Assembly: GCA_008632985.1 (NCBI GenBank)
Contig: QPGO01000104.1
Coordinates: 124,001 to 188,000 of the forward strand
Source of the DNA: Psammoneis japonica
Taxonomy: Eukaryota
DNA length: 64,000 bases
Direction of reading: 5' to 3'
The position numbers and the translations under genes were made by a program. This document shows positions 10,997 through 39,680 of the stretch, piece after piece. The notes under the pieces are model-generated. The model was not told where the DNA came from, searched no databases, and saw only the letters and a list, made by a program, of their open reading frames with translations. Positions within the stretch are counted from its first letter, which is position 1; every line of letters begins with the position of its first letter.

Positions 10997-11030
10997 CAGT
11001 CAGTTGCCGATTCACGTAGAATGTGCAGGA

Positions 11031-11089
11031 TTCACAACAGTGCACCCTCTCGTCAAAAGCATTTTGGGGAGAGGGTGCACTGTTGTGAA
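11031..11089. repeat. Perfect 21-bp inverted repeat (hairpin)
   Basis: ttcacaacagtgcaccctctc (11031-11051) and gagagggtgcactgttgtgaa (11069-11089), with a 17-nt loop. Confidence 0.9.
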
Positions 11090-19393: not shown

Positions 19394-20536
19394 CTAGTCA
19401 TCAGCAGTTACCAGAACGGAACGAACAGTTAAGCCGTCCATATAAAAGACATGGATAGCCTTGTCTCCAACATAGACAAGTGACTCATCGTCAACATCAC
19501 CATCGTTCATGAGATCTAGGACACTCAATGCGAGCTGCCTCTTGCCATATTCTACTGCAGCAGCACGAGCCTCCAGATTTGGTGTTCGGCGAACGCGGCC
19601 ATTCGTGCCGCCCAGTGTATTGTGCTCTCTTAATTGTCGACGAACATTATTTTGACATGTATAGTCATTGTTAAGTGGTTCAGCGGTGCTGTAGTCAACT
19701 CCATACCCCATATCTTGCAAACTAGCAATAGACACTGAAGAAAACGGATGTGTCGCAACAAAGGGGTCAAGTATTCCAGTCATGATCTCACTTCCGAGAT
19801 AAAGTTCATCCCAATGACCACGAGGTCCGAGGCCTGCGTCGTTCTCGATTGGGGGACATCCAGGACATCCCGTGAGATTCTGATAGGCATCGCAGGCGAA
19901 GGTGCCATTTTTGTACGTATAGTTGCTTCCGGCGCCCCCGAATCGACCAATCAACCCCAAATCATCCCACTGTGTTCCAATACCCACGCAGTGGCCGATC
20001 TCATGAGTAAGAACCGTTTCTAACAAGCCCAGTATTTCAAGCAATCTAATATCGGCTTCATCGATTGAAACGATTCCAATTGCGGGCAAGTCGGAATCCG
20101 ATCTCTGCCATCGTACTCCCGCAAAACCCAAATTTCCATCAAGCCCGTCAATTTGTTGCGTCCTGATGCAAATGAAGAGGTCATCAATGAATCTAGGCTT
20201 GGCACAACCAATGTCTCGAGACAGACCATGCCCCGTATCGGGAATGTCTTCAACAATTATGCTTTCCCAACGCGCGACGCTCGCATTGACAGCCGCTTCA
20301 AACGATTCACAAGGCACACCGCTATATCCGATATCTAAATTGTAAACTCGCTCTACACAAAAAATGAACACAAGCTCCTTTTCAGTGATAATGAATATGG
20401 CGCAGAAATCGTAGTGTGCACAGCTTTGCTTACCAGACTCTAGCGATGGCGCTGCCGTCGGACTCGCACTAGCCACGCGGCTGTTGGACAAAGCGAAAAG
20501 GAAGGGTAGGCCTAAACGATGCATAAACCACAACAT
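19394..20536 (-). CDS. Secreted zinc metalloprotease, leishmanolysin/M8-like
   Basis: HEIGH zinc motif, GHWDE, EIMTG Met-turn and SLQDMGY; hydrophobic N-terminus; GT-AG intron ~20353-20432. Confidence 0.85.
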   Translation of the reverse strand: MLWFMHRLGLPFLFALSNSRVASASPTAAPSLESGKQSCAHYDFCAIFIITEKELVFIFCVERVYNLDIGYSGVPCESFEAAVNASVARWESIIVEDIPDTGHGLSRDIGCAKPRFIDDLFICIRTQQIDGLDGNLGFAGVRWQRSDSDLPAIGIVSIDEADIRLLEILGLLETVLTHEIGHCVGIGTQWDDLGLIGRFGGAGSNYTYKNGTFACDAYQNLTGCPGCPPIENDAGLGPRGHWDELYLGSEIMTGILDPFVATHPFSSVSIASLQDMGYGVDYSTAEPLNNDYTCQNNVRRQLREHNTLGGTNGRVRRTPNLEARAAAVEYGKRQLALSVLDLMNDGDVDDESLVYVGDKAIHVFYMDGLTVRSVLVTADD

Positions 20537-21161
20537 TGACAAGTTTGCTACTTGTTGCTTGTTGCAAAACAAATTCAAGGGCGAAGCCCATATGTCCTCT
20601 GTTTGTTGGTGGCGGCTTGTGGGAGCAGTTCTAAAAGTTTTCGAAATTTTGAGATTGCCGCGAATTTTTTCAAACTTTTATGATATGTACAGACGTTAAG
20701 AATACTGAATTATTTTGAATAATAATGACCGAAGACAAACATTGCAATGTGAGCTTTCGCACCAACTCGACAAAAAACACATGATGTGGAGGACCGTGAA
20801 CTACAGTTGGCATGCCCTTGCTTGTAGAAAACTCTAGCTAGAGCTAGTTCGCACAAGACTTCAGATGGAGGATAGCCCCAATGCTAAAGGTAGAACAAGC
20901 AACACTGCCAGAAGGCCACTTGAAATACAAGAATGCTGGCAACAAGCATCTCAACCCCAAGCATCTGCTGGAGAGGCAGGGGGGGCACAGCAGCAGTCAG
21001 ATTGCGACGACTTCTCCCCCGTTGGTTCGTTCTCTGGCTCAGATCATTTGCATCTCTCTTTCTCTTGCACTTGCAATTTCAGACAAAGAATTGGTGAGCA
21101 GCATGACACAATGCTGAAGTTCAAGGCACGAGTGTCATGCGTGTCCCCTCTCTTTTGATGC

Positions 21162-22900
21162 TCACAATTCTGAATTTGTGCTCCAAGATGACCGCCTTGT
21201 GAAGCTCATCTGGGGTCCTTTAACTCGAGTGATCTCCAGCAGCTCTTGCTCTTCTGTTTGAGACGTTGAAGTCTCAGTGCATTTGACAATCTTGGGACAA
21301 CACAAAAATGGAGCCATGAGCCAGCACTCGCAATGATCCAGTCCTCGAAACACAAATGCTCCCAAGTCCTCCAATTGGTTGGTCTTGGCATCTTCAAAAT
21401 CTTGCACAGATGATCCATGTGTCCACAGGGCGGGACTCCTGAATGTCCAATGGGGTGATGTGGTCTTTGCCACTCATGAAAATCATGGAGTTTCTTTCCA
21501 ATGTTGCCAACAAAGAGGTTGCCTTGTGCCCAGCAAAGCTGATGTTGCACCACCCATTTTGCCATGTGGTCTGACCAAATCACAAATGAGACATCTCCTG
21601 GATGCAGTGCACACTGTGAATGACATGATTTTATGAGGGCTGCACATTGCAGAGACACAAACACAAACTGGATCAAGAAACATCAGTGCTGTGCAACAAA
21701 ATAACTTGGTGTGTGCTTTGCAACATGCAAGACAATGAACTCCCATGGGAATGACACTGAAATGTTGCCTTGTGATGTCCATGGCAAGCTGACATTGCAG
21801 CCAGTGATGCAGCAATCTGCCTGGGAGATTGTGTGGAGCCAGGCATGACCCACGATCAAAAGGCTGACAGCATCAACATTTCCCCAAGGAAGATCGGATG
21901 CTTGGTTTGGAGAAGTTCCCAAAGCAGAGGCAGATGCATGACAACACCCAATCCAATGCTGCCTCCCACAAGTCAGTCAATTTTGTCCACAGCTTTGGTT
22001 TTGTCTTGTTGTTTCTGATTGCTTGTACCCACACAGCCTGTTGGGACATTCCCAGAAGGTTGAAGAGGGCCAAGACATCTCTCTGTTGCAACAAACTCTG
22101 ACGGCACAACACGACCACTGAGTTGATGAAGAAGTCTGCCACCCTCAGCAACGTGGGTCAAGCTTGTGATTCCTTGGATGTTGCAAGGGCTCTCAGCAGC
22201 TTGAGGCTCATCTTTGATGCCTTTGTTGAGAACTCTGAGATGACATGGCTCTCTGGCAACAGCTTCTCCATCGCCAACATAGATTTTTGACAAGAGTGGC
22301 AAGCAGCGGATCATGAGCAATGGCAACACTCACAAAATTGCTGCAAACATGCTCAGCAACATTCAAAACAGCATTTGCACCTTCTTCCAACAACTTGGCA
22401 ATGTCCCTGACCAACCAGTCAATCCAAGATTTGGAGACCAACATCAGCCATTCTCCCCCAGAACCTTTGGCAGCAAGTGCTTGCTCTTTCAGCTTGCTGT
22501 GCAATTGAGCTTCACTTCAAGCACTGGCAAGCACCAGCGGATTCTCTGCTGGTCATGGTGTCTCCATCCAAGAAACTGAAGTCTCCTTTGTTGGCATCTG
22601 ACACAAAGTTGCACAAAAAGATGGGGCTCCCAGTCATTTCTGAAAAAAACCTTGTCAGCATCCCATCATCTCGGCTGCCTGTGGTGGCCAAGAAAGGCAC
22701 TGACTCAAGTGCTGAAGAGTATTTGTGACATCATTGGCTGCAAGCTGTTGACACATTTAATTGCAAGGTTGCAACCAATCTGGAAATGTTGAGTTCAGTC
22801 AACTGCAGAAGGCATGCAAGGAAAGCATGTGGTCAAAGCAAGCTGGCCCAAATTTTGCTTACCAAGGACCTGACATGCATCGACTTGGGCCAAAAAACTC
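21162..22900 (-). pseudogene. TpA-mutated paralog of the alpha/beta hydrolase at 35602-37494 (copy A); TpA-depleted domain 2
   Basis: WVVQHQLCWAQGNLFV and TRRSSWS match WAVQRQFCWARGNLFV and TRRSSWS; Tyr replaced by Cys/His; frameshifts. Confidence 0.9.
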
Positions 22901-23382
22901 AAACATTGCGTCATACGATCGGAGTTTATCAGCCGTATAGGCGGGGTGAGGTCGTTTTCAAGAACAACGTGGTCTAGCGGCAGCCGAGCGAAAGCAGCGA
23001 GTGTAACAAGAAGAGTCACAGCAAGAAGAAGGAGAAGACGAACAGCTAGAAATTTTAGCTGTAACCTAGAGAGTACCCATACTCGCGGCAGTTTCGGCTG
23101 GAAGTAGATGGACGTTTCTAGGTTGACGCATTTGAGCCGTATCTGTAATGCATCCACGTTAATAACTTCGTCTTCGATTGTATCCACCGCATCCTCGACT
23201 TATCGATTGTTTGCTGCTATCGCCGTTGTGACGGAAGCAATCGTCGTCCGATGAGTATGATCTTCTCTTGCATTATCAAGCTCAACATTTTTGCTTTGGA
23301 GAGTGTAGCCGGAACAAGTTGATTGGAATCACTTTGGGCGCGGAGAAAAGACTAAACTGAGTGAAGCCGTCTTCACTGCACC

Positions 23383-24831
23383 TTACTCATCCACAGCAGT
23401 CGATTTACTCGTAGTTCCCGCATCAAAGGCAAACAGTCGAGCGAAATTACCTTGTATGGCCGCAGTTCCACCAACAAATGTCAACATGGAGGGCACAATG
23501 AATAAAAGAGCCGGAAGCCCCGAGCTTGAAACACCCGGAACAAACTCGCACGCGAAACAGCCCGTGGCAAATCCCAGTAAGGAGGCTACAAAGCAATTGC
23601 TACCTTTCTGCTCTTGATCAAATCTGAGACAAAGCGTCGACAATAGACAAGGAAAGACAGAATCTCCCAACCCCAACAAGTCAGTGACAATGCCACGCAA
23701 CCGCACCACAAACAATCCCGGCTGCCACATTGCTTCTCCCGTAGTCTTGGCAAGTGCCACTGCGCCCATGGCGGACGATGAAGCGCTACTACTACTCGCG
23801 GTTTGACTTTGAGCTAGACTTGCACTGCCCAAATCAATCAGTTGTATGCCGACCGATACCACATCATACAAAACCAAGCCCGTCAGTGCCACGAGAATGG
23901 GCCCCATTCGTGGCAATTGAATGGCACGCGCCACGGCAATGGCCAAACAGACGCACAGTATATTTTGAATGGGCCAAACCAACGCAGATGGACCGGCAAA
24001 GGCAAGAGCCGATAGTATCAAAGCGATAAGAGTTGTCAGTATTTCGTTTTGTTGGAGTATTGGCAAGCGTGCCAGTTCAGCACGGCAAAAGAGAGAAACG
24101 ACCAACCCGTTGGTTAGCAATGTAAAACTTGGAATCAACTCCTTTATGCTCTCCAGCAAGGGAATTGAGGGAGAAGAGGATACCAAATCGTCTTGCTGCT
24201 GTTGAAATAGGAAAATCAAGACTGAGGTTGCAAAACTCGCCACGACAAGGAGGGGTAGTCCCACGGCTTGCGTTGAGTCCTCCACACGGTCGAGTTCAGT
24301 AGCCATTTCCTGAAAACGCGTATCGTCTTGTTTGTCCTGTATTTTTTCAACGTTTGGCGGCAGCACTTGTCGCGTCAAGTCCACGAGCCGTGTTCCCAGA
24401 GCCGCATCATCGGTCGCCCCACGTGTGCTGCCAATCATCACCACGAGGAGTGCCAGGGCATAAATGTACAGCCGTTTGCAAATCACGAGCGGTGCAACGA
24501 ACCGGAATTGTAACAACAAGGCCAATCCAAGAGACAACAGAGGGATTCCCCCAAACACAAGCAATGGAGCTATATCCAACGATGATTCGTTAACATCATT
24601 GTTCTCGTCACTGCTCAGCGACAACCGGCACGATGATCTTGTTGTTGAGGTCGGCGTCGGCAAGTTGAAACAATCAAAGGCCCTTCTTGGAGCACCGACT
24701 AGAGGACCGCACTGGCGACTGCATGCTGCTCTTGATGTGGAAGAAAACTGTTGAAAACCATGAAGGAAACGGGCTGGGAGTGTAATGCAGAGCAGCAACA
24801 GACAGCCGCGAACGACGCCGTGCTTCATCAT
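23383..24831 (-). CDS. Signal peptide peptidase-like aspartic protease (A22B, GxGD family)
   Basis: VLYD, LGLGD and LPALLF motifs in a multi-pass ORF; presequence-like N-terminus. Confidence 0.9.
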   Translation of the reverse strand: MMKHGVVRGCLLLLCITLPARFLHGFQQFSSTSRAACSRQCGPLVGAPRRAFDCFNLPTPTSTTRSSCRLSLSSDENNDVNESSLDIAPLLVFGGIPLLSLGLALLLQFRFVAPLVICKRLYIYALALLVVMIGSTRGATDDAALGTRLVDLTRQVLPPNVEKIQDKQDDTRFQEMATELDRVEDSTQAVGLPLLVVASFATSVLIFLFQQQQDDLVSSSPSIPLLESIKELIPSFTLLTNGLVVSLFCRAELARLPILQQNEILTTLIALILSALAFAGPSALVWPIQNILCVCLAIAVARAIQLPRMGPILVALTGLVLYDVVSVGIQLIDLGSASLAQSQTASSSSASSSAMGAVALAKTTGEAMWQPGLFVVRLRGIVTDLLGLGDSVFPCLLSTLCLRFDQEQKGSNCFVASLLGFATGCFACEFVPGVSSSGLPALLFIVPSMLTFVGGTAAIQGNFARLFAFDAGTTSKSTAVDE

Positions 24832-27800
24832 GGTGTCATCAGAAGATTGCTGTCGCAAGTAATTTTTGGAATTTTCGTTCAACGGCAATTACATAGAGAG
24901 AGGGCAGTTGATTCTTGATTATGTAGTGTAAGTGATAATTTCGTCAGCGAATAAAAGCATAATTGATCATTTGAAATATTCAGAAAATTAATAGTAATAA
25001 AACGCAATGTCTTTCCACAATCCTTCGAAAACTGCACGGCGAAGTCCATCGTGTTTTCTTTGTGCATTGTTTGACGGCGATGAGAAGAATACAAACGCGC
25101 TGTCATTGCTGTTGTTGCCTTGCAGCTTGATTGTGTCCATCTGTCAGCACTGCCATGGTGGACATTGCCAACAACATGCTGTCAATTAAATGTGGGCAAG
25201 AATGTGAAACATGCAGAACAAAAGAGGATGGGCCAGGAACAGCAGCCAACCCATGTTTGAGTCCTTTGCTGATGTTGCAGACACTCGGAATGACATGCAT
25301 CAAAGACTCTTTGAGTGTGCCCTTTTGCATCTGTGGCATGGGAGGAGGCAGAACCATCATGTGCATGTGGATGGTGCATTGTTTGATGATGCTTTTGTTG
25401 GCACATTTGTCCCTCTGCAAAGAGCACTTTTCTTTCACTCGCAAACAGCTCAAGGTGACTCTCATCTTTCATATCTTTGCTGATGCTGCAGATGCACAGA
25501 ATGACATGCATCAAGACTCTTTGAGTGCACCCTTTTGCATCTGTGTGGCACGGGAGGAGGCAGATGGTCATGTCGCGCAGATGGTGAGTGTTGTTTGAAT
25601 GACGTTTTTGTTGGCACATTTTGTCCCTCTGCAAAAGCACTTTTCTTTCACTTGCAAACAGCTCAAGGCAGGTGAAACTCAATCCATTCTTCTCCCACAT
25701 GCTCCACAAGCCATTGAGCTGGGGACAGAGCTGCTGCGTTCTTGTGTCTTTTTCAAGCGTTCCACAATCTGAACAATCTGTGCTGCTCTCCCTTCTCCTT
25801 CTCCTCATGCACTCACACACCTGCCATCATGTTGCCATTGCTGGACTTGTGGGATTTACAATGCAGCTTTTGGTCATCACTCAAGGGCAACCAACACTGT
25901 CTCAATTCATTTTTTCCCAGCTGGACTCCCAGATTCTTTTGTCAAGTTCAATTGTGCTCCAGCTCTGGCATTGTTCGCCCTGGCCATTTGAAGCCACCAA
26001 GAGGCTGTGCCAAGTGGCAACAAATTCTCCACACAAGAAGTGTGCCAACAACAACAAGCAAAGCAGTTGTGACTCTTTGCCATGAAGAATGCTTGTTGCG
26101 CTCTTGCACACACTGAAAGCCCATTTGGGCCTTTGACCTTCAACACCGACTTGAGCAAATCTCCACAGGTGGAGATTTGCTTGCTCACATCAGAAACATG
26201 TCAACAATGTTTTCTCAGATGTGAACAATGGACAATTTGCACAATTTTGTTGTGGAACGTGCATTTGCCAAAAGCTCTGGTGGACCACTCCTCTTGCAAT
26301 TTAGAAAGTTCGATGTCAACTTTTAACTTTGACACCGGTTTTTTTCCACACTTCATGTGTGCACAGAGAGGAACCAAATCTCAACCTTCAACAATGAGAT
26401 TTGTGACAAGTTGCTGTCACAACAGAGCAGTGAATGCCACACCCTTGGAGCAATCTCCACCGGCGGAGATTGCTTGCAACAAGCAAATGCCTGTGGTGTG
26501 TTTTACACAATTTGCACATGATGTGACATTTTTGCATTGTGCACATTGTGTGTTGTTCTTTTTTGATGCATGACACCTCACAATTTGTCAATCAGAGCAG
26601 TGGAGATTTGCTCTGTGGTGGTTGAAGGGTCAATGTTGGCAACCACAGCCTTTTCTGTTGAGCTTTTAACAAGTGTGGTGCTTGGCTTGGGTGTGGCCAT
26701 GCCATTTTCTACAATGATGATGATTGCCACATCACCACAAATCCATGCTGCAACTTTGTGCATGACAAAGAGGATGGGTGCCTCATCAAGAGTGACAACA
26801 GTTGACACAGCAGTTTTGATCAAAACAGAAACCCAGAATGCAATGGCGGTGGTGGACTGGAGACAATTTGTGAGATGAGCTTCCACACAACGTGATTGTT
26901 TGTCCTCTGGAGCACAAATTTGGCATTTCCAAGAGACAGTTGCAAGTTGGTTTTAAAAAGTGTTTTGCAAGAAACAGTTGCAACTTCCTGCAGCGCCTCT
27001 TTTTGCAATCCCCCTTTTTGTCTGCAGCCCGATTTCATCCCAAAGTGCTGGGTGATTGTGATCCTCTTTGCACTGTTTGTCATCCATGTGAGCCACTGTT
27101 TGCTGGCTCACATTCTGTGCCAACATCCTAAAATCCTGTGAAGTGATGCCACATGTTGCTTCCATTTTGATGCTGCTCCCAAAGGATGCAAAACTCATTT
27201 TGCTGTCATTGCAAATGAAAAAGAAACACAAGAAACATGTGGTGCAACACACAATGACTGGTCCAAAAACACCAAATGAGTGTTGTTGCATGCTTGTGCC
27301 AACCACCGCTGATGTAAAAGACAGATTTTGACATGTGCAAAATGACAAATTGAAAAAGCTCTGCAGTGGCTCAGTTGATGGCACTGCATCCAGCAGCTGG
27401 GCCAGCTTTGCAACATTTTCTTGCCCCAGCTGGCCCACACAATGGTACAACCATGCAGCAGAGAGCAGAGAAATCACCAAACTGGGGCCATTGATGGCAA
27501 CAAAGGTCACAAACCTGGACAGTGTGGAGCCACCACACACTGGCAACTCTTGCTTGGGTGGGTGGTTGCTCTGCTGCAGCTCTGCTCTTGTGGTGGGTGG
27601 TGGGTGCTCTTTGCACTGCTGAAATGATCACACAGCATGACCGCTTGAGCATGACCGGCGGGTGCTCTTGTTTGGCCAAAGCTTGGAAAGGGTGTGGCAC
27701 TCAAGACCACAGTCTTTTTGCAACAAGCCCTGCTTTGAACAACCAGAGAGTGGGAGCCCCAATTTTTCCCTTCTGACAAGCTGGCTCCCATTTCAGTTGT

Positions 27801-28924
27801 TGGCAATGGCTTGCCTGGTGCAGATGCTCCAACATGTCAAACGCAGAAAATGCCGGACCTTGCTTTGACCAGGGAGGTGAAAGTTGCTGATGACTCAGTG
27901 CTCAAACAGAAAAGGATGCCAGGTTGACCCCAAGAATGACACACACTTGTGTTTGTGCATGTCTTTGAGGGCAATGCTGTGGCAGGCTGCTCCTCTCTGC
28001 TGGTGGTGGGATGGGCTCTGTGGGATGATGACAGGATTTTTGTCAGCTCTGACTCTTGTCTGACAAGCAGCTCAAAGGACACTGTTTGCAGAAAAGATTT
28101 TGGCACATCTCAAGAGACATCTTCTCTTTGGAAGGAGAGAAGTGCTTTCTGCCATTGCAGCAGGTGCGTGTGCAGCACAGAAGCTCACAAAGTTCAAAAC
28201 ACCTGAGCCAATGGCAGAAATGGCTTGAGGGAGAGCTGAGTTTTGGTGGAGGACTGTGTGTCAAGTGCTGGGGCTGTGAGGAAGAGCTCATTTCAAGAAG
28301 TGCAGCCTCCACAAGGGCTGGATTCACCCAAGTGACCTGGTGCTGCTGCAAGAGCCAAGTTTGCATGTCTTGACAGAGACAGCAGCTGAAGTTGAAAGAA
28401 AACAAAATCAAATGCATCATTGTCTCACTGCCAGCCCCCCCCCCCATGCAAACACCAAGGTCTGCATCATGCCAAGTGCCAAACCAAAAAAATTGAGGGC
28501 GCCAACATCATGATGTTTTCTTGCTGAAGAGCTCAAAATCTGCTTGGCCTGCTTCTGCTCACCTGAGTGCTGGTGCTTGTTTGTCAAAAAATCAAGCTCC
28601 CAGTGCAACAAGAAAATTCATCATGGCCATGTGCTCAAATGCAATGGAGAGCTGGCTATGAAGAACAGGTTCGCTGTGCTTTTCCTTCCTTCCTGCCATG
28701 TGTGCACTCTGCACATGGTTGCTGAGGCTTGTGCAAACTGCTGGCAATGTGATGATGCATTCCAACTCAAGCTTTCAAGTGGAAGGGGGGGTCACAACAA
28801 CCCACACAGAATCCATGCAGGTTTTTGTGCTGGTGTGCAATGATTGGATGATTCTGAGGTGTTCAGGCTGCATGAAAGAGGAGGAGAAAGTCTGCTGTGC
28901 GCACGCATCTCACATTTTTTTTTG

Positions 28925-31025
28925 TCACCACAATTCTCTCAGTGTTCTCTGGGTTCCGTCAAAGACCCCCAATGCCATCAGTCTGCAGCTGGCATGCTGG
29001 CATGCCATGCCAGGGTGTCCTTTCACTCTGGAGAGGGGAGAGCTTTTTTGAAGCCTCACTCTCTCTTCTGACTGGGCATGCCAGATGGGTCTTGCAGTGC
29101 CCAACCAAAGCTCTTCTCACACAGTGTTCACCAATGTCTTTAGTCTGCAGATGGTGTCTTTGTTGGTTGCAGGCAGAGTTGTGAGCCCCAGCACTGACAT
29201 GAAAAAAGTGACCGTGGGCCACAACAGTGCCAGACGGGCCTTGCAGCACTTGAGCACAATTCTCAAAGTGTTCTCTTGGCTCTGCCAGAGACCATCAATG
29301 CCCTCATCCTGCAGTTGTTGTGCTGCTGGTTGATTGCACATCACTGTGTCCTGTCACACTGAAAGACAGGAATTTCAGCTCTTGCTCTGACATGGATGAA
29401 ATGACTGGGGGCTGCATGCAGCTGCACAAAATGTGTGCAACACTCTCAACCACTTTTCTCAAAGTGTTCTCTGGGCCAACCTGGAGACCTTTGGTGCTCT
29501 CAGCCTGCAGTTGTTGGGTTGGGTTGGTTGCAAGAGGGTGTCCCATCACTCTGGAGTCAGCAACTTCAGCTCACTCTGGCACATGGATGAAGTGACTGGT
29601 GGCAGCAACTGTGCCAGATGAACCTTTCAACACTGCACCGCCATTCTCAAAGTGTTCCCTGGGTTCCATGGGAGACCTTCAATGCCCTCATCCTGCAGTT
29701 GTTGGGTTGGTTGGCTGCATCAGGGTGTCCTTTCACACTCTTGAGTTGCAAATTTCAGCTCCCTTTTTGGCATCAATGAAGTGACTGGGGAGGGCCACTG
29801 CACCAGATGAGCCTTGCAACGCTCCACCACCATTCTTAAAGTGTCCCCTGGTTTTCCCCTGTGGATCATCAATGCTCCAAGCCTGCAGTTGTTGGGGGTT
29901 CATTGGCTGTGCCAGGGTGTCCTTTCATTCTGGAGCACCAGATGAGCCTTGCATCGCTCCACCTGCATGGATGAAGTGACTGGCAGCTGCAACTGCACTG
30001 GATGAGCCTTGCAACACTCCACCACCACTCTCAAAGTGTTTCCTGGTTTCCTCTGGAGACCTTCAGTGCCCTCAACTTGCAGCTGTTGAGTTGGTTGGTT
30101 GTGCCAGGGTGTGCTTTCACTCTGGATTTGCAAACCCCAGCTCTCATTTTAGAACAAAAGGAGCAACTGGTGGGGAGCAACGCTGTGCCAGACAAGCCTT
30201 GCAACACTTGGCTGCCACTCTCAAAGTGTCCCCTGGGTTCCCCTGCAGATCTTCAATGCCGCCCAAACTGCAGTTGTTGGGTTGGCTGGTTGCACCAGAG
30301 TGTCTTTTCACTCTAGAGCCATTTGTTGGGAATTTTTCTTATCTCATTTTGGCATGGATTGAGTGGCTGAGGGCTGCAACTGCACCAGAAGGGCTTCTCC
30401 ACACTCCACCGCCATTTTCCAAATGTTCCCTGGCTTTCCTGGAGACCTTCAGTGCTCCCAGCTTTCCTTGAGACCTTCAGTGCCCTCAGCCTGCTGCTGT
30501 TGGGTTGTTTGGTTGTGTCAGGGTGTCCTTTCACTCTTGTGTTGTGAACTTCCAGCTGTCATTTTGGCATGACTGAAGTGACAGGGGAGCACCGGCGAAC
30601 CAGAGGAGCCTTGCAACACTGGCCACCATTCTCAAAAGTGTTCCCCAGTTTCTCTTGCAGATCTTCAGTGCCACCAGACTTCAGTTGCTGGGTTTGTTGG
30701 TTGCACCAGGGTGCCCTTTTACTTTGGAGTGGCTGGGAATTTTTCTCTTTTCATTCTGACATGGGCTGAGTGACTGAGGCTGCAATTGCACCACCAGATG
30801 AGCCTTGCAACGCTCCATCATTTTTCTCAAATTTTGTTCCCTGGGTCCCCACAGAGACACCTTCAATGCCCTCCTTGGCTTGCAGTTGTCAGGATGGTTG
30901 GTTGTGCCAGCAGGGTGTCCTTTCACTCTGGAGCAGTTGGGAATTTTCCTCCTCTCATTTTGGCATGGATTGAGTGGCTGGTGGCTTCAAATGCACTTGA
31001 TGGGCCCTTCGACACTTCACCACCA
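28925..31025 (+). repeat. Degenerate tandem array, ~190-bp unit, ~11 copies
   Basis: The motif cagggtgtcctttcactct recurs near 29015, 29345, 29540, 29725, 29915, 30110, 30300, 30525, 30710 and 30915, with shared gagccttgcaacactccacca and ctgcagttgttgggttgg segments. Confidence 0.85.
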
Positions 31026-31139
31026 AAATCCAGTTTGCTTGCCCATCATGACAGATGCACCAGTTTTTGAGTTTTTTGGCAGCACTTGCTGCAGCGCTTG
31101 CTGCTGTGGTGCCACCACACAAGAACACACATGGGGGGC

Positions 31140-31870
31140 ATCCACCAGGACATCCCATGAGATTCTGACAGGCATCGCAGGTGAAGGTGCCATTTTTGTG
31201 TGTGTGGTTGCTGCTGGCACCCCCGAGTTGACCAGTCAACCCCAAATCATCCCACTGTTCCAACACCAATGCAGTGGCTGATCTCATGAGTGAGAGCTGT
31301 TTCCAACAAGCCCAACAATTCAAGCAATGGAACATTGTCTTCATCAATTGCAACAACTCCAATTGCAGGCAAGTCGGAATCCGATCTCTGCCATCGTGCA
31401 CCCACAAAACCCAAATTTCCATCAAGCCTGTCAATTTGTTGGGTCCTGATGCAAACAAAAAGGTTGCCAATGAATCCAGGCTTGGCACAACCAATGTCTT
31501 GAGACAGACCACACTCCGCATCAGGAATGTCTTCCACAATTGTGCTTTCCCAATGTGCTGTGCTCACGTTGGCCGCAGCTTGCAGCTTCAAATGATGATT
31601 CACAGGGCACACCACACTGTGTCCGATGTCTAAACTGCAAACTCGCTCTGCACAAATGATGAAGAAAAGTTCCTTTTCAGTGATGATGAACATGGCACAG
31701 AAATCGCAGTGTGCACAGCTTTGCTTGCCAGACTCCAGTGATGGTGCTGTCATCGGACTTGCACTGGCCACGTGGCTGTTGGACAAAGGGAAAAGGAAGG
31801 GCAGGCCCAAACAATGCACAGACCACAACATGGACAAGCTTGCCACTTTTCGCTTGTTGCAAAACAAAAC
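31140..31870 (-). pseudogene. TpA-mutated partial copy of the M8 metalloprotease (5' part, intron retained)
   Basis: ORF 31247-31924 aligns with the intact gene (HEISH vs HEIGH); splice donor GTAAG changed to GCAAG. Confidence 0.95.
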
Positions 31871-32456
31871 ACAAGTGGGGAGCCCATCTGTCCTCTGTTT
31901 GTTGGTGGTGGCTTGTTGAAGCATTTCTGAAAGTTTCGAAATTTTGAGGTTGCACCCAATTTTTTCAAACTTTTATGATGTGTGCAGACGTTGAGAATGC
32001 TGGGTTGTTTTGAATGATGATGACCAAAGACAAACATTGCAATGTGAGCTTTCGCACCAACTCGACAAAAAACACATGATGTGGAGGACCGTGAGCTGCA
32101 GCTGGCATGCCCTTGCTTGTAGAAAACTCTGGCCAGAGCAAGTTCGCACAAGACTTCAGATGGAGGACAGCCCCAATGCTGGGGGTGGAACAAGCAACAC
32201 TGCCAGAAGGCCACTTGAAACACAAGAATGCTGGCAACAAGCATCTCAACCCCAAGCATCTGCTGGAGAGGCAGGGGGGGCACAGCAGCAGTCAGATTGC
32301 GACGACTTCTCCCCCGTTGGTTCATTCTCTGGCTCAGATCATTTGCATCTCTCTTTCTCTTGCGCTTGCAATTTCAGACAAAGAATTGGTGAGCAGCGTG
32401 ACACAATGCTGAAGTTCAAGGCATGAGTGTCATGCATGTCCCCTCTCTTTTGATGC

Positions 32457-34200
32457 TCACAATTCTGAATTTGTGCTCCAAGATGACCGCCTTGTGAAGC
32501 TCATCTGGGGTCCTTTAACTCGAGTGATCTCCAGCAGCTCTTGCTCTTCTGTTTGAGACGTTGAAGTCTCAGTGCATTTGACAATCTTTGGACAACACAA
32601 AAATGGAGCCATGAGCCAGCACTCGCAATGATCCAGTCCTCAAAACACAAATGCTCCCAAGTCCTCCAATTGGCTGGTCTTGGCATTTTCAAAATCTTGC
32701 ACAGATGATCCATGTGTCCACAGGGCGGGACTCCTGAATGTCCAATGGGGCGATGTGGTCTTTGCCACTCATGAAAATCACGGAGTTTCTTTCCAATGTT
32801 GTCGACAAAGAGGTTGCCTTGTGCCCAGCAAAGCTGATGTTGCACCACCCATTTTGCCATGTGGACTGACCAAATCACAAATGAGACATCTCCTGGATGC
32901 AGCGCACACTGTGAATGACATGATTTTATGAGGGCTGCACATTGCAGAGACACAAACACAAACTGGATCAAGAAACATCAGTGCTGTGCAACAAAATAAC
33001 TTGGTGTGTGCTTTGCAACATGCAAGACAATGAACTCCCATGGGAATGACACTGAAATGTTGCCTTGTGATGTCCATGGCAAGCTGACATTGCAGCCAGT
33101 GATGCAGCAATCTGCCTGGGAGATTGTGCGGAGCCAGGCATGACCCACGATCAAAAGGCTGACAGCATCAACATTTCCCCAAGGAAGATCAGATGCTTGG
33201 TTTGGAGAAGTTCCCAAAGCAGAGGCAGATGCATGACAACACCCAATCCAATGCTGCCTCCCACAAGTCAGTCAATTTTGTCCACAGCTTTGGTTCTGTC
33301 TTGTTGTTTCTGATTGCTTGCACCCACACAGCCTGTTGGGACATTCCCAGAAGGTTGAAGAGGGCGCCAAGACATCTCTCTGTTGCAACAAACTCTGACG
33401 GCACAACACGACCACTGAGTTGATGAAGAAGTCTGCCACCCTCAGCAACATGGGTCAAGCTTGTGATTCCTTGGATGTTGCAAGGGCTCTCAGCAGCTTG
33501 AGGCTCATCTTTGATGCCTTTGTTGAGAACTCTGAGATGACATGGCTCTCTGGCAACAGCTTCTCCATTGCCAACATAGATTTTTGACAAGAGTGGCAAG
33601 CAGCGGATCATGAGCAATGGCAACACTCACAAAATTGCTGCAAACATGCTCAGCAACATTCAAAACAGCATTTGCACCTTCTTCCAACAACTTGGCAATG
33701 TCCCTGACCAACCAGTCAATCCAAGATTTGGAGACCAACATCAGCCATTGTCCCCCAGAACCTTTGGCAGCAAGTGCTTGCTCTTTCAGCTTGCTGTGCA
33801 ATTGAGCTTCACTTCAAGCACTGGCAAGCACCAGCGGATTTTCTGCTGGTCATGGTGTCTCCATCCAAGAAACTGAAGTCTCCTTTGTTGGCATCTGACA
33901 CAAAGTTGCACAAAAAGATGGGGCTCCCAGTCATTTCTGAAAAAAACCTTGTCAGCATCCCATCATCTCGGCTGCCTGTGGTGGCCAAGAAAGGCACTGA
34001 CTCAAGTGCTGAAGAGCATTTGTGATGTCATTGGCTGCAAGCTGTTGACACATTTAATTGCAAGGTTGCAACCAATCTGGAAATGTTGAGTTCAGTCAAC
34101 TGCAGAAGGCATGCAAGGAAAGCATGTGGTCAAAGCAAGCTGGCCCAAATTTTGCTTGCCAAGGACCTGACATGCATCGACTTGGACCAAAAAACTCAAA
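32457..34200 (-). pseudogene. TpA-mutated alpha/beta hydrolase paralog (copy B)
   Basis: Nearly identical to 21162-22900. Confidence 0.9.
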
Positions 34201-35601
34201 CAATTGCGTCATGCGATCGGAGTTCATCAGCCGCACAGGCGGGGTGAGGTCGTTTTTCAAGAACAAGGTGGTCTAGCTTCAGCCGAGCGAAAGCAGCGAG
34301 TGCAACAAGAAGAGTCACAGCAAGAAGAAGGAGAAGAAGACCCGCTAGAAAATTCAGGGAATGTGAAATGTGAAAAAGGACAATCTGACAAATTAGAGCA
34401 ATTGCACTGTGATGCATGCTCACCTGTTTGTTTGAAATTCCACCAGATTCTGTCCTGCCTCATTTTCTTTGATCGGATTGGCGCAAGAAGCGACGGGTGA
34501 AACAGTTGCAAAATTTTGACGGCGCTGCAGGCAAACCAGCGGCTGCAGGAGCCACCCAGGACTCCATGTCAGCATCCTCCATGGCAGTGTCGAGAGAACT
34601 GAAGGTGAGCATAGAGACATGCTTGCCAATGTCCACGTCCATCATGCCCATGCCATCAACGACCGTGATTTCACACTGAAAAGCAAAAAACAGTGGCACG
34701 AAAAGCAAGGGTCAGCTGGGGGAATGTGAAATGCTAAAAAGGACAATCTGACACTACAGAACAACAGCATTGTGATGCATGCTTACCTGTTTGTTTGCTG
34801 TTCCACCAGATTCCGTCCTACAGACGACGAAACGACAACACCGATTCTGTTGGTTTCGGTCGGTCGCGCATGACACAAGGCAAGAAATGCCGATGCGACA
34901 TCCGGCAAGTGAAGACGTGAAAAAACAACGCCAACGCAACAACAAACCAAACCAAGCTATCATAATACACTTTACCGTGTCAACGATCACCCCGTATTGC
35001 ATGGGGGTGCTATCTGTTGTAATGACTCGGAACGGCGACGTGCCATGTTGGTTGTCTTTTTGGTTGGGTGCTGCGTTGCGCGGCACGAAAAAAAAACGCG
35101 CGCGTGTCGCTGTGGTAAACAAAGAGTTAAGAACATTCAATTATTTCGAATCTACATGGCCGATGACAAATGTTGCTAACGTGAGCTTTCGCACCAACTC
35201 GAAAAAGTCACGCAAGACTTTAGATGGAGGATAGCCTCGACGCTAAAGGTAGAACAAGCAACACTACCAGAAGGCTGCTTGAAGTACAAGAATGCCGGTA
35301 AGCGTCTCAGTCAAGCATCTGGAGGGGGCAGCAGATTGCGACAACAGACCAGTTGGTTCATTCTCTGGCTCAGATAATTTGCGGCGCTCTCTCTTTTGTG
35401 CTCGTAATTTCAGACAACTCGAGTTCGCTGCCGCCAGTGCCGGGTATACAAGCTTTAAATGCCACAACTTTAACACTACTGTACCATAAACAAAAGGAGT
35501 CCAAGGAGCCGAGACCTCCGAAAGAAGCGGAAAAAATTGGCGGGCAGCGTAACGTAATAATGAAGTTCAAGGCTGATATGAACTCTCTTCGCTTTCGACG
35601 T

Positions 35602-37494
35602 TTATGCTGAATTTTTGCTCCAAGATGACCGCCTTGTGTAGCTCTTCAGGGGGCCTTCAACTCGAGTAACCTCCAGCAGCTCTTGCTCTTCCGCTCGAGC
35701 CGTTAAAGTCTCTGTGCATTCAACAATCTTGGGACAATACAAAAATGGCGCCATGAGCCATTCGCCATGATCCAGTCCTCGAAACACAAATACTCCCAAG
35801 TCGTCCAGTTGATTTGTCTTGACATCTTCAAAATCTCGCACAGAAGATCCATGTGCTCGTAGGTAGGACTCCTGAATATCCGATGGGGCGATGTGGTCTT
35901 TGCTACTCACGAAGATCACACACGGTTTCTTTCCAATGTCGTCGACAAAGAGGTTGCCTCGTGCCCAGCAAAACTGTCGCTGTACCGCCCATTTCACCAT
36001 CATGTCTGACCGGATCATAAATGAGATGTCTCCCGGATGCGGTAGGCTGTAAACGAGACGGTTTGTGAGGGTTGCATTGTAGAGACAAAAGCAAACTGGA
36101 TCAAGAAACACCAGTGCCGCGACAAAGCTTGGTGTGTATTTTACAACGTACGAGACAATGAAACTCCCATAGGAGTGACACTGAAACGTTGCCTTGTGAT
36201 GTCCATGGTGAGCTAACATTGCAGTTAGCGATGCGGCGATCTGCCTGGGAGATTGTACGGAGCTAGGCATGACCCAGGGTCGAAAGGCGGATACCGTCGA
36301 TATTTCCGGGAGGAAGATTGGACGCTTGGTTCGGAGAAGTTCCCAAATCAGAGGTAGATACATGACAACACCCAATCCAATGCCATGAACAAACACAATT
36401 GGTGTTTTATCCTCTTCGCCGTCATTTCCCAGTTTTCCATTATTTGGTTTGTAGTAATATGACGTGGCGCAAATCACATGTCTGCGAAAACCCAGACACC
36501 ACATTACCAACCGAAGCATAATCTCGGCTGGCACGACAATAAGTATGTGCAAAACGAGAGGAAATAGTTCGACTCCCAAGAGAGGATCCGAGAATGGACG
36601 TAGGTATCGTTGGGTGTTGGGAGGAGCACCGTCTCCTTCCACATTGCCTCTGTCCTCGTTTAGCACATTGTGGCATTCTGTGATTTTCCGCATGAGCTCT
36701 GCCAGCACAGCCGCGGGTAGATCATGGGACTCTGGTATCAATTGTTCCAACAACCGCCTGAAGCCCCTCAATTGCTTCATAATTTGACTTGAAGGAGCAG
36801 CTTTTGAAGCAAGCAAGGTATCATCTGTACTTTGCGAAGATTCGCTACCATCACTATTCTCCAGCTCGTCCTTGATGTTGCCAAGACTCGCCAACGGAAT
36901 AATGCTTGGGCGATGTGAGACACCGTTGCCATTTCCTCGATTGGTCTTGCGGAGCACTTCTTGAACGAATTTGTCAATCTGTTCGTGCTCTCGGTCCAGC
37001 AAGTGTTCTTGACTCCTCCCATCAAAAAAGCCCCAGGCTATAAAGTTTCTCAGGTCGTGTAGGGTAATACTGTCAATGTCTACATTATGGAACCATCTCT
37101 GAAAAAAGAGAGAAACATTGTCCTTTTCTGCTTCGAGCACTCGATCCCAGAGCGAGATTCGTTCCTCCATTGGCATAATAGGCGCTGCTTGTAAGGCAGC
37201 CTCCATTGGATCAATCGAGTCGAGATAAGCCAGTTTCATTCTCATACAAATGTTGAAGCATACTTCAAGACTAAGAGCAACAACCAACCACGTTGGGACC
37301 AACTGAGTAAAGGAAGAGCATACTTCATTGCCTAGTGACTCGGTGATGAAAACTTCGCAAAGGATCTTCTGCAATAAGATGATGGGTAGAGCTGCATTAA
37401 ACAAAAAGGTAAAACACAGATAAAGCGAGTCAACGCTGCCAATATCGTGCTGCCATGTGCTGAATCGGGAAGCCCTTCGGTTGGCAACTAACAA
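35602..37494 (-). CDS. Alpha/beta hydrolase-fold protein (probably with an upstream exon beyond ~37565)
   Basis: PIVFVHGIGLG, nucleophile elbow HSYGS, LVFLDPV, KD and GLDHG catalytic-triad-like motifs. Confidence 0.85.
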   Translation of the reverse strand: MLVANRRASRFSTWQHDIGSVDSLYLCFTFLFNAALPIILLQKILCEVFITESLGNEVCSSFTQLVPTWLVVALSLEVCFNICMRMKLAYLDSIDPMEAALQAAPIMPMEERISLWDRVLEAEKDNVSLFFQRWFHNVDIDSITLHDLRNFIAWGFFDGRSQEHLLDREHEQIDKFVQEVLRKTNRGNGNGVSHRPSIIPLASLGNIKDELENSDGSESSQSTDDTLLASKAAPSSQIMKQLRGFRRLLEQLIPESHDLPAAVLAELMRKITECHNVLNEDRGNVEGDGAPPNTQRYLRPFSDPLLGVELFPLVLHILIVVPAEIMLRLVMWCLGFRRHVICATSYYYKPNNGKLGNDGEEDKTPIVFVHGIGLGVVMYLPLIWELLRTKRPIFLPEISTVSAFRPWVMPSSVQSPRQIAASLTAMLAHHGHHKATFQCHSYGSFIVSYVVKYTPSFVAALVFLDPVCFCLYNATLTNRLVYSLPHPGDISFMIRSDMMVKWAVQRQFCWARGNLFVDDIGKKPCVIFVSSKDHIAPSDIQESYLRAHGSSVRDFEDVKTNQLDDLGVFVFRGLDHGEWLMAPFLYCPKIVECTETLTARAEEQELLEVTRVEGPLKSYTRRSSWSKNSA

Positions 37495-38148: not shown

Positions 38149-39680
38149 CTCCCTCGGATCGTAACATATTTCAACTGGCGCACAGAGAGATTTCTACGTG
38201 ATTTCTACGTACCTCGTACGAATCACGTAGCCGTAATAGCACAAAACGTCTGGCCTCCACCCCAATCCCATGCCGGCAACACTCCACACTCCCGCCCATT
38301 TATTGCACCGGCCGGCACCAAGAGGTTCGATTCTCTCATGCTTTTGAACTTCATTCAGCACCCCGTCTACTCACCACCAGTCCAAAACAACACGAGTGCA
38401 TCTCTTTCAACTGGAAAGTTGATTGACAGAAGAGTGAAGAAAGACCTCTTTCAGAACTTTTGCTCTCTTGACTGTGCCAGCATGATGCAAGTGTGACGAA
38501 TCGGGAAACTCGGGTCGAGTCGTCGACACGGCCGGATTGAAGTCAAAAGGAGGTCCGAAGGAAAACAAAACAAATGAAGAGCCAAGAGAGTTGCAACAAG
38601 ACTGTGAAAAGATGCCAGCTCGATTCCCAGACAAAGGTGACTCGATGCAAAAAATCGACACTGCTCATTGCATGGAGTGATCTGAGTGACAAACCCCGGC
38701 CAATCGCACGACACTTTGCACCTCGGGCAAGAACAAAGCCCACCCAACAGTGTCTGAACAATTCCCACAGGAGTGATGTTTCTGTCACCAATCTTCTCCA
38801 AATCAAACATTGCCAGCACAACCACGCACACGTCCTTTTCCCACCTGCAAATGCTCCTTGAAACCAACTGATCCACCACGAATGACATTGTTGTAACCTG
38901 CAAAGATGTCCTCCAAGAGATTGATGTCTTTCGACCTCCCAATGACACCAAGTTTTCTGGGTTGTCAAATGGATCAGGGTGTCCACAATGTCATCGGATG
39001 CAGAGAGGTCTTCAAGGAATTTCTTGCAAGGCCACCCAGCTTGCCAGAGAACTCACACACCGTGTTTTAATGCATGATCCATGAACACCACTGTTTGCAT
39101 CATCAACATGTTCCACAAAGTAAATCATGAGGCCCTTTCATGGGGAAGAATCTGCGCGCGGACCGAGAAACAAACAGAGTGAGTGTCGGACCGCTGTCGT
39201 CTGTTGGAAACACACCAACCACGAGCCGCGACATCCAGAGCTCGTCTCAAACACTCCAAAGGTGCCGCGCACATCAGCGCCTTTCATCTGTGTTTGTTGT
39301 GAAACGAGTGAGGCACAGGCAAAGGGATGAGAGGAGGGAAACAACAACAAACTCGACAAAACATGCCGGAACGACGACAACAGCAGCAGACTCATGCACC
39401 GAAGGAATCGAAATCGACATTCTTGCGCGGAGCGGTGCTTGTCAAAATTCAGCCAACACGCAATGGTGCCATGGACAAATGTCGACAATGTCCTGAGTGA
39501 CTCACCTCGTGAAAACAGGTGACAACGACGGTGGACGCGAAACAAATTCGCCATGGTGGCCACGCAAATTCTGCGCAGAATTTTTCGTTTTTGTGCCAGG
39601 AACCAAAAAAATCGCACGTTGCGATTTTTTTAAGCTGTGCCAGTTAGCCTGGTACAGCGTTATGTTACGATCCGTGGGAG
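38149..39680. mobile_element. Non-autonomous TIR element (~1.5 kb), interior TpA-depleted
   Basis: 20-bp TIR with 1 mismatch: ctccctcggatcgtaacata (38149-38168) and tatgttacgatccgtgggag (39661-39680). The CTCCC terminus is mariner/Stowaway-like; no clean TSD. Confidence 0.7.

Follow-up and report, generated by a model that had tools for sequence, protein, structure and literature searches.

The window, by which we mean the whole 64,000-nucleotide stretch of DNA that was analysed, contains a duplicated block whose two copies, copy A at 19850-23058 and copy B at 31132-34357, are 93.7% identical over 3229 columns in a self-BLAST, bearing out a preliminary description of this DNA in which an unmutated copy was paired with a mutated one. 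The left flank of copy A (19850..20950) is of ordinary composition, with 49 TpA and 56 CpG, and comprises the 5' part of a protease gene together with its upstream region. The gene itself (19394..20677, minus strand) is an intact 427-aa stop-to-stop frame for a leishmanolysin-like M8 metalloprotease with a TpA observed/expected ratio (o/e) of 0.6-0.7; six homologues were found, five of them carrying PF01457, and the gene represents the "before" state. The left flank of copy B (31132..32245) holds the "after" state, a truncated and frameshifted protease fragment whose reading frame is broken near 31250 and whose six tyrosines have all been lost, three to Cys and three to His. The two cores (20951..22850 in copy A, with 7 TpA in 1.9 kb, and 32246..34147 in copy B, delimited by BLAST and alignment to copy A) are near-identical and both TpA-poor. 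The right flank of copy A (22851..23058) is again of ordinary composition and has 9 TpA, 7 of which are TG or CA in the right flank of copy B (34148..34357), where the CpG are intact (0 of 13 changed to TG or CA). Background transversions between A and B amount to 0.2% in the core and 2.3-2.4% in both flanks, and this roughly tenfold difference calls for a further event, gene conversion for example. An older paralogue, copy C, which is about 80% identical, lies within ordinary DNA at 35126..36383 (three BLAST pieces plus alignment; TpA o/e about 0.55), overlaps an open reading frame with an alpha/beta-hydrolase match (35605-37512, minus strand), and served as an outgroup. Among the other genes of the window, a signal-peptide-peptidase reading frame has best matches that are only 55-57% identical, which hints weakly that this DNA does not belong to the B. 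natans reference.

Alignment of the diverged 1.1 kb (19860-20950 of copy A) with copy B revealed a strongly biased pattern of substitution. Only 3 of the 49 TpA in A are kept in B, while 43 have become TG or CA (25 TG and 18 CA) and 3 have changed otherwise; no TpA is present in B that is absent from A. The TG and CA changes are interleaved within the 1.1 kb, so that both strands are affected. When substitutions were tabulated by dinucleotide context, A to G changes were found at 43 of the 98 adenines that follow a T, compared with 26 of the 487 other adenines, or 5% (Fisher p 1.6e-20), the rate by preceding base being 44% after T, 8% after A, 5% after G and 3% after C. Over the whole duplication, 52 TA have changed to TG or CA and none in the reverse direction. 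The 56 CpG of copy A have also suffered, with 17 retained in B, 19 changed to TG and 13 to CA. The transition:transversion ratio between A and B is 110:31, whereas two control pairs of duplicates in ordinary DNA (82-88% identity) show a ratio near 1:1, with symmetric exchanges and 30 of 44 TpA retained, against 3 of 49 for A/B (Fisher p 1.5e-10). Besides the transitions, copies A and B are separated by indels, a frameshift and the 31 transversions. The counts first given for 20581-20940 proved exact (19 TpA, of which 12 are TG, 3 CA, 2 otherwise changed and 2 kept in B, with about half of the CpG, 6 of 11, surviving), and the example singled out there, tacgtatag at 19914-19922 against tgtgtgtgg at 31199-31207, reads as described.

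Two comparisons give the direction of change. Copy C matches A at 12 of the 14 aligned A/B differences and B at none, and it shares the TpA of A at all 12 polarisable sites. Of the 65 residues that differ between the two protease sequences, 25 match the homologues in A, as against 6 in B, and the copy A protease retains homologue-invariant residues that copy B has lost. Since copy C and the homologues both place the change in B, the direction is A:T to G:C, as originally proposed. The same comparison extends to the core, where copy C has 32 TpA in the kilobase it has in common with A, and A keeps none of these as TA (13 are CA and 14 TG). The TpA to TpG/CpA hypermutation of copy B is thus confirmed as real, TpA-specific and directed from A:T to G:C.

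The scan of TpA and CpG o/e within the window showed that copy B is part of a larger pattern, whose scale the preliminary description had understated. Discrete TpA-poor domains with an o/e near 0.05 (range 0.02-0.09) make up about 40% of the window and together hold 82 TpA in 25,640 bases where about 1,050 would be expected at the frequency of the rest of the window. The adjoining ordinary DNA has a TpA o/e of 0.58, and the domain edges are sharp to about 100-300 bp. The first domain, D1 (1..12394), is cut by the window start and holds a Plavaka-type DNA transposon; its sub-domains have TpA o/e values of 0.02-0.09. Copy B lies in D3 (25146..34634), as does a 190-bp tandem array (29194-30318); TpA there number 31 over 9489 bp (o/e 0.05), and CpG is scarce as well (o/e 0.19). 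D5 (56806..61019) is likewise poor in both, with a TpA o/e of 0.02 (6 over 4214 bp) and a CpG o/e of 0.17. D4 (38385..39511) is a small island with 3 TpA in 1127 bp (o/e 0.04) and nearly normal CpG (o/e 0.76), and it has no similarity to anything else within the window. Within the domains, the depletion is equally strong in every reading frame, on both strands and in non-coding DNA. These results show a TpA to TpG/CpA process that acts from A:T to G:C on either strand, is regionally confined, and is nearly complete in the domains.

CpG loss follows a different map. It is found in D3, in D5 and in the left flank of copy B, where 32 of 56 CpG have become TG or CA, and it largely spares D4, the right flank of copy B and D1 (CpG o/e 0.56-0.69 in five of seven D1 sub-domains, with 0.18 and 0.30 in the two end ones). 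Because CpG decay is limited to some of the TpA-poor domains, the decay of CpG to TpG/CpA is a second, slower process that is separable from the TpA loss.

The contents of the domains are varied: the Plavaka-type transposon, decayed sequence without identifiable origin, and the fragment of a host gene duplicated into one of them. Apart from A and B, the domains have no similarity to one another within the window. None of 90 domain reading frames of at least 100 aa had a Pfam match, nor had the first set of long reading frames examined there, and consequently the term foreign DNA is shown to apply to D1 only. Long open frames nevertheless persist in the TpA-poor domains, which yield long spurious reading frames that would mislead gene callers.

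The D1 element was recognized from a 770-aa open frame (P0007, 4893..7202, plus strand) identified by homologue search as a relative of Plavaka-family transposases. An exhaustive search of representatives gave 673 matches, where a prior homologue search had given none; P0007 is 38-41% identical to the three best-scoring matches, and PF18759 is carried by 12 of the 14 top matches tested. P0007 itself has no Pfam match at E 0.001 or better, PF18759 included, and together with its PF18759-bearing relatives this identifies it as a decayed member of the group. Its tyrosine content is 0.4%, compared with a homologue median of 3.2%, and the positions that are Tyr in the homologues are mostly Cys or His in P0007. 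Metagenomes yielded 28 related Plavaka-type loci, not one of them poor in TpA (o/e 0.42-0.79), so the depletion is not inherent to the family. Three more Plavaka-family proteins in public data (P0093, P0120 and P0163) are nearly Tyr-free, with one tyrosine per 1100-1300 residues, which suggests, from protein sequence, that the footprint may be widespread; a metagenome scan with two Tyr-free proteins as queries found no relative. TpA erasure can be looked for in databases through such Tyr-free transposase "proteins".

The best explanation overall, and one we consider likely, is a domain-confined TpA to TpG/CpA process of the kind reported in the chlorarachniophyte Bigelowiella natans, in which adenine would be deaminated in DNA. 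We hypothesize that a mutator enzyme is recruited to silenced or foreign chromatin, that it deaminates the adenine that follows a thymine, and that the hypoxanthine product is then copied as G. Missense changes, such as Tyr to Cys or His, would inactivate the elements, which would persist as long "ghost" open reading frames because the change from TpA to TpG/CpA never creates an in-frame stop. Targeting would follow the domain rather than pairwise homology. Thus, of the earlier proposal of a targeted mutator in transposon or heterochromatic DNA, the confinement to silenced or transposon-type domains holds, and a trigger by repeat homology is not supported. Nor is the label of a RIP-like hypermutation of repeats, as the duplicated gene in A is untouched, the TpA-poor domains are mutually dissimilar within the window except for A and B, and the preprint text describes the viral region mutated in B. 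natans as present in a single copy (10.64898/2026.01.13.699255).

The TpA that survive in the domains suggest that the process may prefer RTAY over YTAR sites: the ratio of low to normal DNA is 0.40 for TTAA and 0.24 for CTAA, compared with 0.004 for ATAC and 0.008 for ATAT, a reading that assumes original tetramer frequencies like those of ordinary DNA. Among polarised events, the flanks gave no signal as to which strand's adenine changes (20 against 15). Clustering by strand was seen when all A to G events were taken together (P 0.016), with P 0.22 for TpA events alone and P 0.66 for CpG events, and is too weak for us to claim a processive single-strand enzyme. More tentatively, and with a confidence that falls somewhat short of even, we propose that diatoms, and perhaps the stramenopile-alveolate-rhizarian group, may have a domain-targeted DNA adenine deaminase defence that removes TpA from transposons with a preference for RTAY, is faster than and independent of cytosine methylation, acts by missense only, leaves long frames free of stops, and spreads to DNA copied into the domains.

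Adenine deamination has to be weighed against a modification of the other base of the dinucleotide. Thymine in the TpA of silenced DNA might be modified, for instance by a dioxygenase of the TET/JBP type that oxidises it to 5-hydroxymethyluracil or to a derivative resembling base J, and might then mispair with G. The resulting T to C changes would leave the same footprint, since TpA reads identically on both strands. The symmetry of the changes (25 TG vs 18 CA) and flanks that do not reveal the strand or base attacked agree with such a route, and hydroxymethyluracil favours TpA in dinoflagellate DNA. We regard it as unlikely, however, since no TET/JBP-type dioxygenase is found in the window, where the 2OG-Fe(II) oxygenase match is of the prolyl-hydroxylase type (PF13640/PF13661), and since the secondary changes rank adenine after A above adenine after G or C (8%, 5% and 3%). 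Adenosine deaminases typically show this preceding-base ranking of A > G > C. Adenine deamination is also the mechanism favoured, though not tested, by the B. natans authors in their preprint text (10.64898/2026.01.13.699255). That the bases are misread, with true TA (and CG) hidden behind modified bases in a sequencing or basecalling artefact, is very improbable. TpA and CpG are indeed palindromic, of the type that carries symmetric modifications, and the read set used as a check (X1) may come from the assembly's own sample. Nevertheless, X1 contigs (exact 31-letter words, depth about 30-55; library type unrecorded, possibly the assembly's sample) match 31323-31743, 27733-28805 and 30011-30942 with no other letters, reproducing mutated stretches with 0 differences over 421, 1072 and 931 bases, as noisy long reads would not. 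These exact matches to the mutated copy make an artefact unlikely; A and B also differ by indels, a frameshift and 31 transversions, and Illumina data gave the same spectrum in B. natans according to the preprint text (10.64898/2026.01.13.699255).

Selection, rather than mutation, could also lower TpA, if mobile or viral sequences shunned TpA/UpA (and CpG) to evade a host nuclease or sensor, in the way that RNA viruses avoid UpA and CpG. One TpA-poor domain is a transposon, and long open frames persist, in line with selection; the frames, however, are explained by the loss of TAA and TAG stops, and a host-gene fragment and the non-coding DNA upstream of it lost their TpA after being copied, alongside conserved residues and the reading frame. 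With all frames, both strands and non-coding DNA hit equally, and with 0 of 28 related metagenome elements TpA-poor, we find selection highly improbable. The reverse polarity, with B ancestral and A gaining TpA from CpA or TpG by C to T changes of the RIP type, deserves mention because RIP makes TpA from CpA and a comparison of two copies alone lacks direction. It is refuted by the outgroup, which shares the TpA of A at 12 of 12 polarisable sites, and by the protease homologues; moreover, A is an intact conserved gene and B a truncated pseudogene, and T to C changes at 32 sites would be needed to make the CpG of A. We assign this polarity almost no probability.

To our knowledge, before the 2026 B. 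natans preprint mutational genome defence was known as cytosine deamination only (RIP and APOBEC). If a TpA-specific adenine counterpart is also at work in a diatom-like alga, it would be no curiosity of one chlorarachniophyte but a widespread means of inactivating mobile DNA in ecologically dominant algae. A naturally occurring deaminase that acts on adenine in DNA and prefers TA would also interest the builders of base editors. Two PF25192 matches in the window are diatom pyrenoid-shell genes, according to passages of the PyShell preprint, and they indicate that the window probably represents a second lineage, distant from B. natans. TpA hypermutation has so far been described in one unrelated alga only; our literature search found no report of it in a diatom, and the passages searched of a mutation-accumulation paper on P. 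tricornutum give a GC-to-AT bias and no hotspots. New with respect to the preprint text are the natural before/after copies with an outgroup, erasure that is complete over tens of kilobases, the spread onto host DNA, the clear separation from CpG decay, and a candidate extended motif.

Several known systems share part of this footprint. Fungal RIP, which depends on a methyltransferase of the RID/Dim-2 type and on the sexual cycle, is likewise a transition hypermutation of mobile or duplicated DNA that leaves a strong dinucleotide footprint and dead elements. Its C:G to T:A changes, however, make TpA and stops, whereas here TpA is destroyed and no stop can arise; RIP also mutates both copies of a duplication, while the left flank of copy A keeps its 49 TpA, even if selection on the gene could mask mutation there. 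Decay by deamination of 5-methylcytosine accounts for the CpG to TpG/CpA changes in D3, D5 and the left flank of copy B, but it cannot give A:T to G:C and is spatially separable from the TpA loss. ADAR hyperediting, which affects RNA derived from repeats, and the ADAT2/TadA-type deaminases change A to G and favour T or U before the edited A, but these enzymes act on RNA. An RNA intermediate does not fit here, because both strands are hit (interleaved TG and CA, Tyr to Cys together with Tyr to His) and because the changes extend to promoters, to intergenic DNA and to a DNA transposon. ADAR hyperediting through such an intermediate was accordingly rejected: A to G on one strand would be expected, and 25 TG and 18 CA were found interleaved.

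The closest system is that of B. natans, in which Mettrop et al. (bioRxiv 10.64898/2026.01.13.699255, 2026) report, in the preprint text, a TpA-specific hypermutation of integrated NCLDV and virophage DNA; the preliminary description, which knew of no such system, is superseded on this point. In Illumina-sequenced mutation-accumulation lines, 230 of the 231 mutations found across two viral regions were A to G or T to C, all of the AT-to-GC mutations in the viral regions fell on TpA, and an ADAT2-like candidate was named (10.64898/2026.01.13.699255). The two cases have in common, as far as the preprint text goes, the TpA to TpG/CpA change, a direction (A:T to G:C) that opposes the usual AT bias, the confinement to regions, TpA depletion with CpA+TpG enrichment, and the proposal of an adenine deaminase. 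The clusters in B. natans are rich in transposon and viral domains according to the preprint text, and D1, with its Plavaka-type transposase, may be their counterpart here. They differ in that de novo mutations were measured there, whereas here a footprint is read from the sequence, and in the degree of depletion: the main target in B. natans has a Rho(TpA) of 0.45, with clusters defined at 0.43 or below (10.64898/2026.01.13.699255), compared with a TpA o/e of 0.02-0.09 over about 40% of the sequence here. Almost no G:C to A:T change would be expected of a process of the B. natans kind, and CpG goes unmentioned in the preprint text, while CpG has decayed in some domains here, with 32 of 56 changed to TG or CA in the left flank of copy B. 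The RTAY preference suggested here has no counterpart in the preprint text, although Table S2 or Figure 2B of that work may show one. Finally, in contrast to the viral DNA of B. natans, the targets demonstrated in this window are a DNA transposon and a piece of a host gene that had been duplicated.

Self-comparison of the window revealed a single long duplication, with copy A at 19850-23058 and copy B at 31132-34357 (93.7% identity), and a partial older copy, C (35126-36383), that is about 75-81% identical to 20695-21959. Identity between A and B was very uneven along the block: counted per 100 columns, it was 67-94% as far as A position 20950, rose to 96-100% from there to about 22850, and was lower again over the last 200 bases. 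In the left flank (A 19860-20950), B kept only 3 of the 49 TpA sites of A, 3 were changed otherwise, and the remainder had become TG (25) or CA (18), while no TpA of B was absent from A. The 56 CpG sites of A in this flank gave 17 kept, 19 TG, and 13 CA. Adenines preceded by T were changed to G at 43 of 98 positions compared with 26 of 487 for other adenines (Fisher p = 1.6e-20), these secondary changes amounting to 8% after A, 5% after G, and 3% after C; cytosines in CpG were changed to T at 32 of 111 positions compared with 9 of 385 for other cytosines (Fisher p = 2.1e-15). Transversions stayed at 2-3% whatever the base context in this left-flank tally. For 20581-20940, the TpA counts of the preliminary description proved exact (19 in A, of which 12 are TG, 3 CA, 2 otherwise changed, and 2 kept in B), and its estimate that about half of the CpGs survive agrees with the 6 of 11 that remain.

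Two duplicate pairs in ordinary DNA served as controls, 16766-17788/17801-18841 (88% identity) and 45416-46093/49795-50468 (82% identity). Their transition to transversion ratios were 57:58 and 59:63, they kept 30 of 44 and 6 of 16 TpA, and exchanges ran both ways. Because these pairs lack the spectrum seen between A and B (110:31, with TpA kept at 3 of 49), the A/B pattern is unlike the ordinary divergence of this genome.

The direction of change was read from the older copy and from protein homologues. C can be aligned to both copies over 20695-20950, where A and B differ at 14 sites: C shares the base of A at 12 of them, never that of B, and matches neither copy at the other 2. At the 12 sites polarized in this way, B shows a change of A to G nine times, of T to C twice, and of G to A once. 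Copy A holds an open frame of 427 aa that encodes a leishmanolysin-like metalloprotease (PF01457 was found in five of six homologues), while the corresponding fragment in B ends at the duplication edge and is frameshifted. At the 65 protease residues that differ, the homologue majority favored A at 25 and B at 6, five residues invariant in all six homologues are present in A and lost from B, and the 6 tyrosines of A are replaced in B by 3 Cys and 3 His. Outgroup, homologue agreement, the truncation and frameshift of B, and the tyrosine losses thus mark B as the changed copy and the change as A:T to G:C, bearing out the direction proposed initially. The reverse, RIP-type polarity, with B ancestral, is excluded by C and the protease homologues. 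Both strands were affected: TG and CA products occur, and tyrosine was replaced by Cys at some positions and by His at others. This rules out an origin in edited sense RNA that was then reverse transcribed.

The loss of TpA was regional and extended beyond the duplicate. Segmentation placed 25,640 of the 64,000 bases in TpA-poor domains, in which the observed/expected ratio (o/e) of TpA in sliding windows was 0.00-0.15 with sharp boundaries, compared with 0.5-0.8 elsewhere in the window. The domains had a TpA o/e of 0.05, a CpG o/e of 0.35, TG and CA at 1.7, and 49.6% G+C; the rest of the window had 0.58, 0.96, 1.21, and 46.8%, respectively. Only 82 TpA were found in the domains, where about 1,050 are predicted from the density in the remaining window. 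As an example of a sharp edge, TpA sites are dense until 24998 and sparse beyond. The core of the duplication (A 20951-22850) is TpA-poor in A and B alike, and at its edge in A a TpA at 20926 is followed by the next only at 21221. In the part of the core that can be aligned to C, the 32 TpA of C are matched in A by 13 CA, 14 TG, and no TA, and 6 of the 50 CpG of C remain in A. Apart from A and B, we found no similarity among the TpA-poor domains within the window, and 90 domain ORFs of at least 100 aa (outside the transposase-like P0007, 4893-7202, plus strand) had no Pfam match. One domain, D4 (38385-39511), stands alone: this 1.1-kb TpA-free island has close to normal CpG and neither a Pfam match nor a relative in the window. 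In the domain D3 (25146-34634), two bins had a summed word depth 25-40 times higher in the public read run X1, which suggests high-copy repeats. D3 also contains a degenerate tandem array at 29194-31025 (units of ~190 bp, 70-74% matches), part of which has very high summed word depth in X1. A change from TpA to TpG or CpA removes TAA and TAG stops and never makes an in-frame stop. The many long open frames of domain D1 (1-12394; 770, 505, 422, 421, 388, 360, and 345 aa) follow from this loss of stops and do not imply function.

Several comparisons show that TpA loss was faster than the decay of CpG that cytosine methylation would be expected to cause, and independent of it. Five of seven sub-domains of D1, as well as D4, are almost TpA-free with a CpG o/e of 0.56-0.76, whereas D3 and D5 (56806-61019) are TpA-poor too with a CpG o/e of 0.17-0.19. 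The left flank of B lost 43 of 49 TpA to TG or CA, and 32 of 56 CpG likewise; in its right flank (A 22851-23058), TG or CA replaced 7 of 9 TpA and none of 13 CpG (Fisher p = 1e-4). Within the core, CpG differences were symmetric (7 each way), while TpA differences were one-sided (2 lost in B, 0 in A). The CpG-sparing domains, the right flank, and the core asymmetry together carry this conclusion. Separately, the Plavaka-type element contains at 4123-5831 a tandem duplication in perfect register (855 bp, 98.6% identity), whose 12 differences are all transitions, 8 of them at CpG, a pattern that fits ongoing CpG decay once TpA is exhausted.

The TpA sites that survive were strongly enriched for TTAA (29 in poor domains versus 72 in ordinary DNA; a ratio of 0.40) as well as for CTAA/TTAG (0.24), compared with 0.084 for TpA tetramers overall, while ATAC/GTAT (1 versus 245) and ATAT (1 versus 125) were almost gone. 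If original tetramer use resembled that of ordinary DNA, this points to RTAY being favored over YTAR. Flanking bases gave no signal predicting which strand's adenine changed (20 versus 15), and strand clustering of events was weak. Transversion divergence outside TpA and CpG was 0.2% in the core but reached 2.3% and 2.4% in the left and right flanks, respectively. The simplest reading would be that gene conversion later acted on the cores of A and B; conversion from B to A would also explain a sharp-edged TpA-poor island in A's ordinary surroundings.

P0007, the 770-aa frame in D1, had no Pfam match of its own and none in a word-indexed protein search. An exhaustive search gave 673 relatives, and PF18759 (Plavaka transposase family) was present in 12 of the 14 top hits tested. 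Tyrosine makes up 0.4% of its residues, whereas in 30 homologues the median is 3.2% and no value falls below 1.8%; Cys reaches 4.9% (homologue maximum, 3.6%) and His 4.4%. At the 19 aligned tyrosines of its best relative, P0051, it has 5 Cys, 3 His, and 2 Tyr. None of 28 related metagenome loci is TpA-poor (TpA o/e, 0.42-0.79), so the depletion was acquired in this genome and not inherited with the family. Among the 150 best relatives, three Plavaka-family proteins (P0093, P0120, and P0163; 27-45% identical mutually and to P0007) have one tyrosine each in 1127-1290 residues, and the 31 tyrosines of the nearest ordinary homologue aligned with P0093 correspond to 12 His, 11 Cys, and 1 Tyr. These three divergent proteins, with His or Cys standing in for the Tyr of homologues, probably record the loss of TpA in other public sequences, and they may come from the same organism as the window.

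A misreading of the mutated bases during sequencing, the alternative named initially, is very improbable. X1 holds 73% of sampled words from 25000-34400, and its contigs, assembled from exact 31-letter words at a depth of about 30-55, agree at every letter with 31323-31743 (part of the mutated protease fragment in B), 27733-28805, and 30011-30942, and match copy A equally well. Noisy long reads would not yield such contigs, and B is set apart from A by indels and by 31 transversions as well; what an artefact has in its favor is that X1, with its library type off record, possibly derives from the assembly's own sample. Contigs specific to D3 and copy B (27733-31743) had a word depth of 30-35, about half the 54-56 of those specific to copy A (19000-20761); D3 may be carried by a single haplotype. 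The targeted mutator proposed in the preliminary description is supported by the sharply bounded domains and by changes that are TpA-specific relative to the controls, while its "repeat-induced" label finds no support among domains that are mutually dissimilar except for A and B; the underlying observation holds on a larger scale than first described. As to mechanism, we tentatively infer an adenine deaminase, at close to an even chance, with modification of thymine in place of adenine deamination as the main alternative.

Two window genes, at 45407-46264 (minus strand) and 49893-50486 (plus strand), form an inverted pair with 82% DNA identity and match PF25192 (diatom pyrenoid shell) with E-values of 1.6e-94 and 6e-60. 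The available part of one preprint places this family mainly in diatoms and haptophytes (bioRxiv 10.1101/2023.10.25.564039). These two genes make it very probable that the lineage of the window differs from that of Bigelowiella natans. Nearby, a single stop-free frame at 42404-44407 (minus strand) gives partial matches to aromatic amino-acid lyase (PF00221) as well as to histidyl-tRNA synthetase (PF13393), with the remaining synthetase parts in neighboring frames at 42051-42662 and 41569-41997; the double match probably reflects adjacent or intron-split genes.

The process is a TpA-specific, A:T to G:C regional hypermutation in a diatom-like genome. Fungal RIP runs in the opposite direction, makes TpA and stop codons, and mutates both copies, features that were looked for here and not found. 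Our literature searches returned no report of TpA hypermutation in diatoms, and the accessible portion of a mutation-accumulation paper on P. tricornutum gives a GC-to-AT bias. The searches did return one directly relevant paper, on B. natans (bioRxiv 10.64898/2026.01.13.699255), so that "undescribed" no longer applies. In the part of this preprint available, 231 of 302 nuclear mutations in mutation-accumulation lines lay in integrated giant-virus and virophage regions, 230 of these 231 were transitions of A to G or of T to C, the AT-to-GC mutations are said to be all on TpA, and a rate of roughly 6e-7 per site and generation is given. The hypermutation in B. natans is the same kind of process as in this window; new here, as far as that text goes, are the erasure of TpA to completion, its spread onto host DNA, its separation from the decay of CpG, on which it does not depend, and a candidate preference for RTAY sites.
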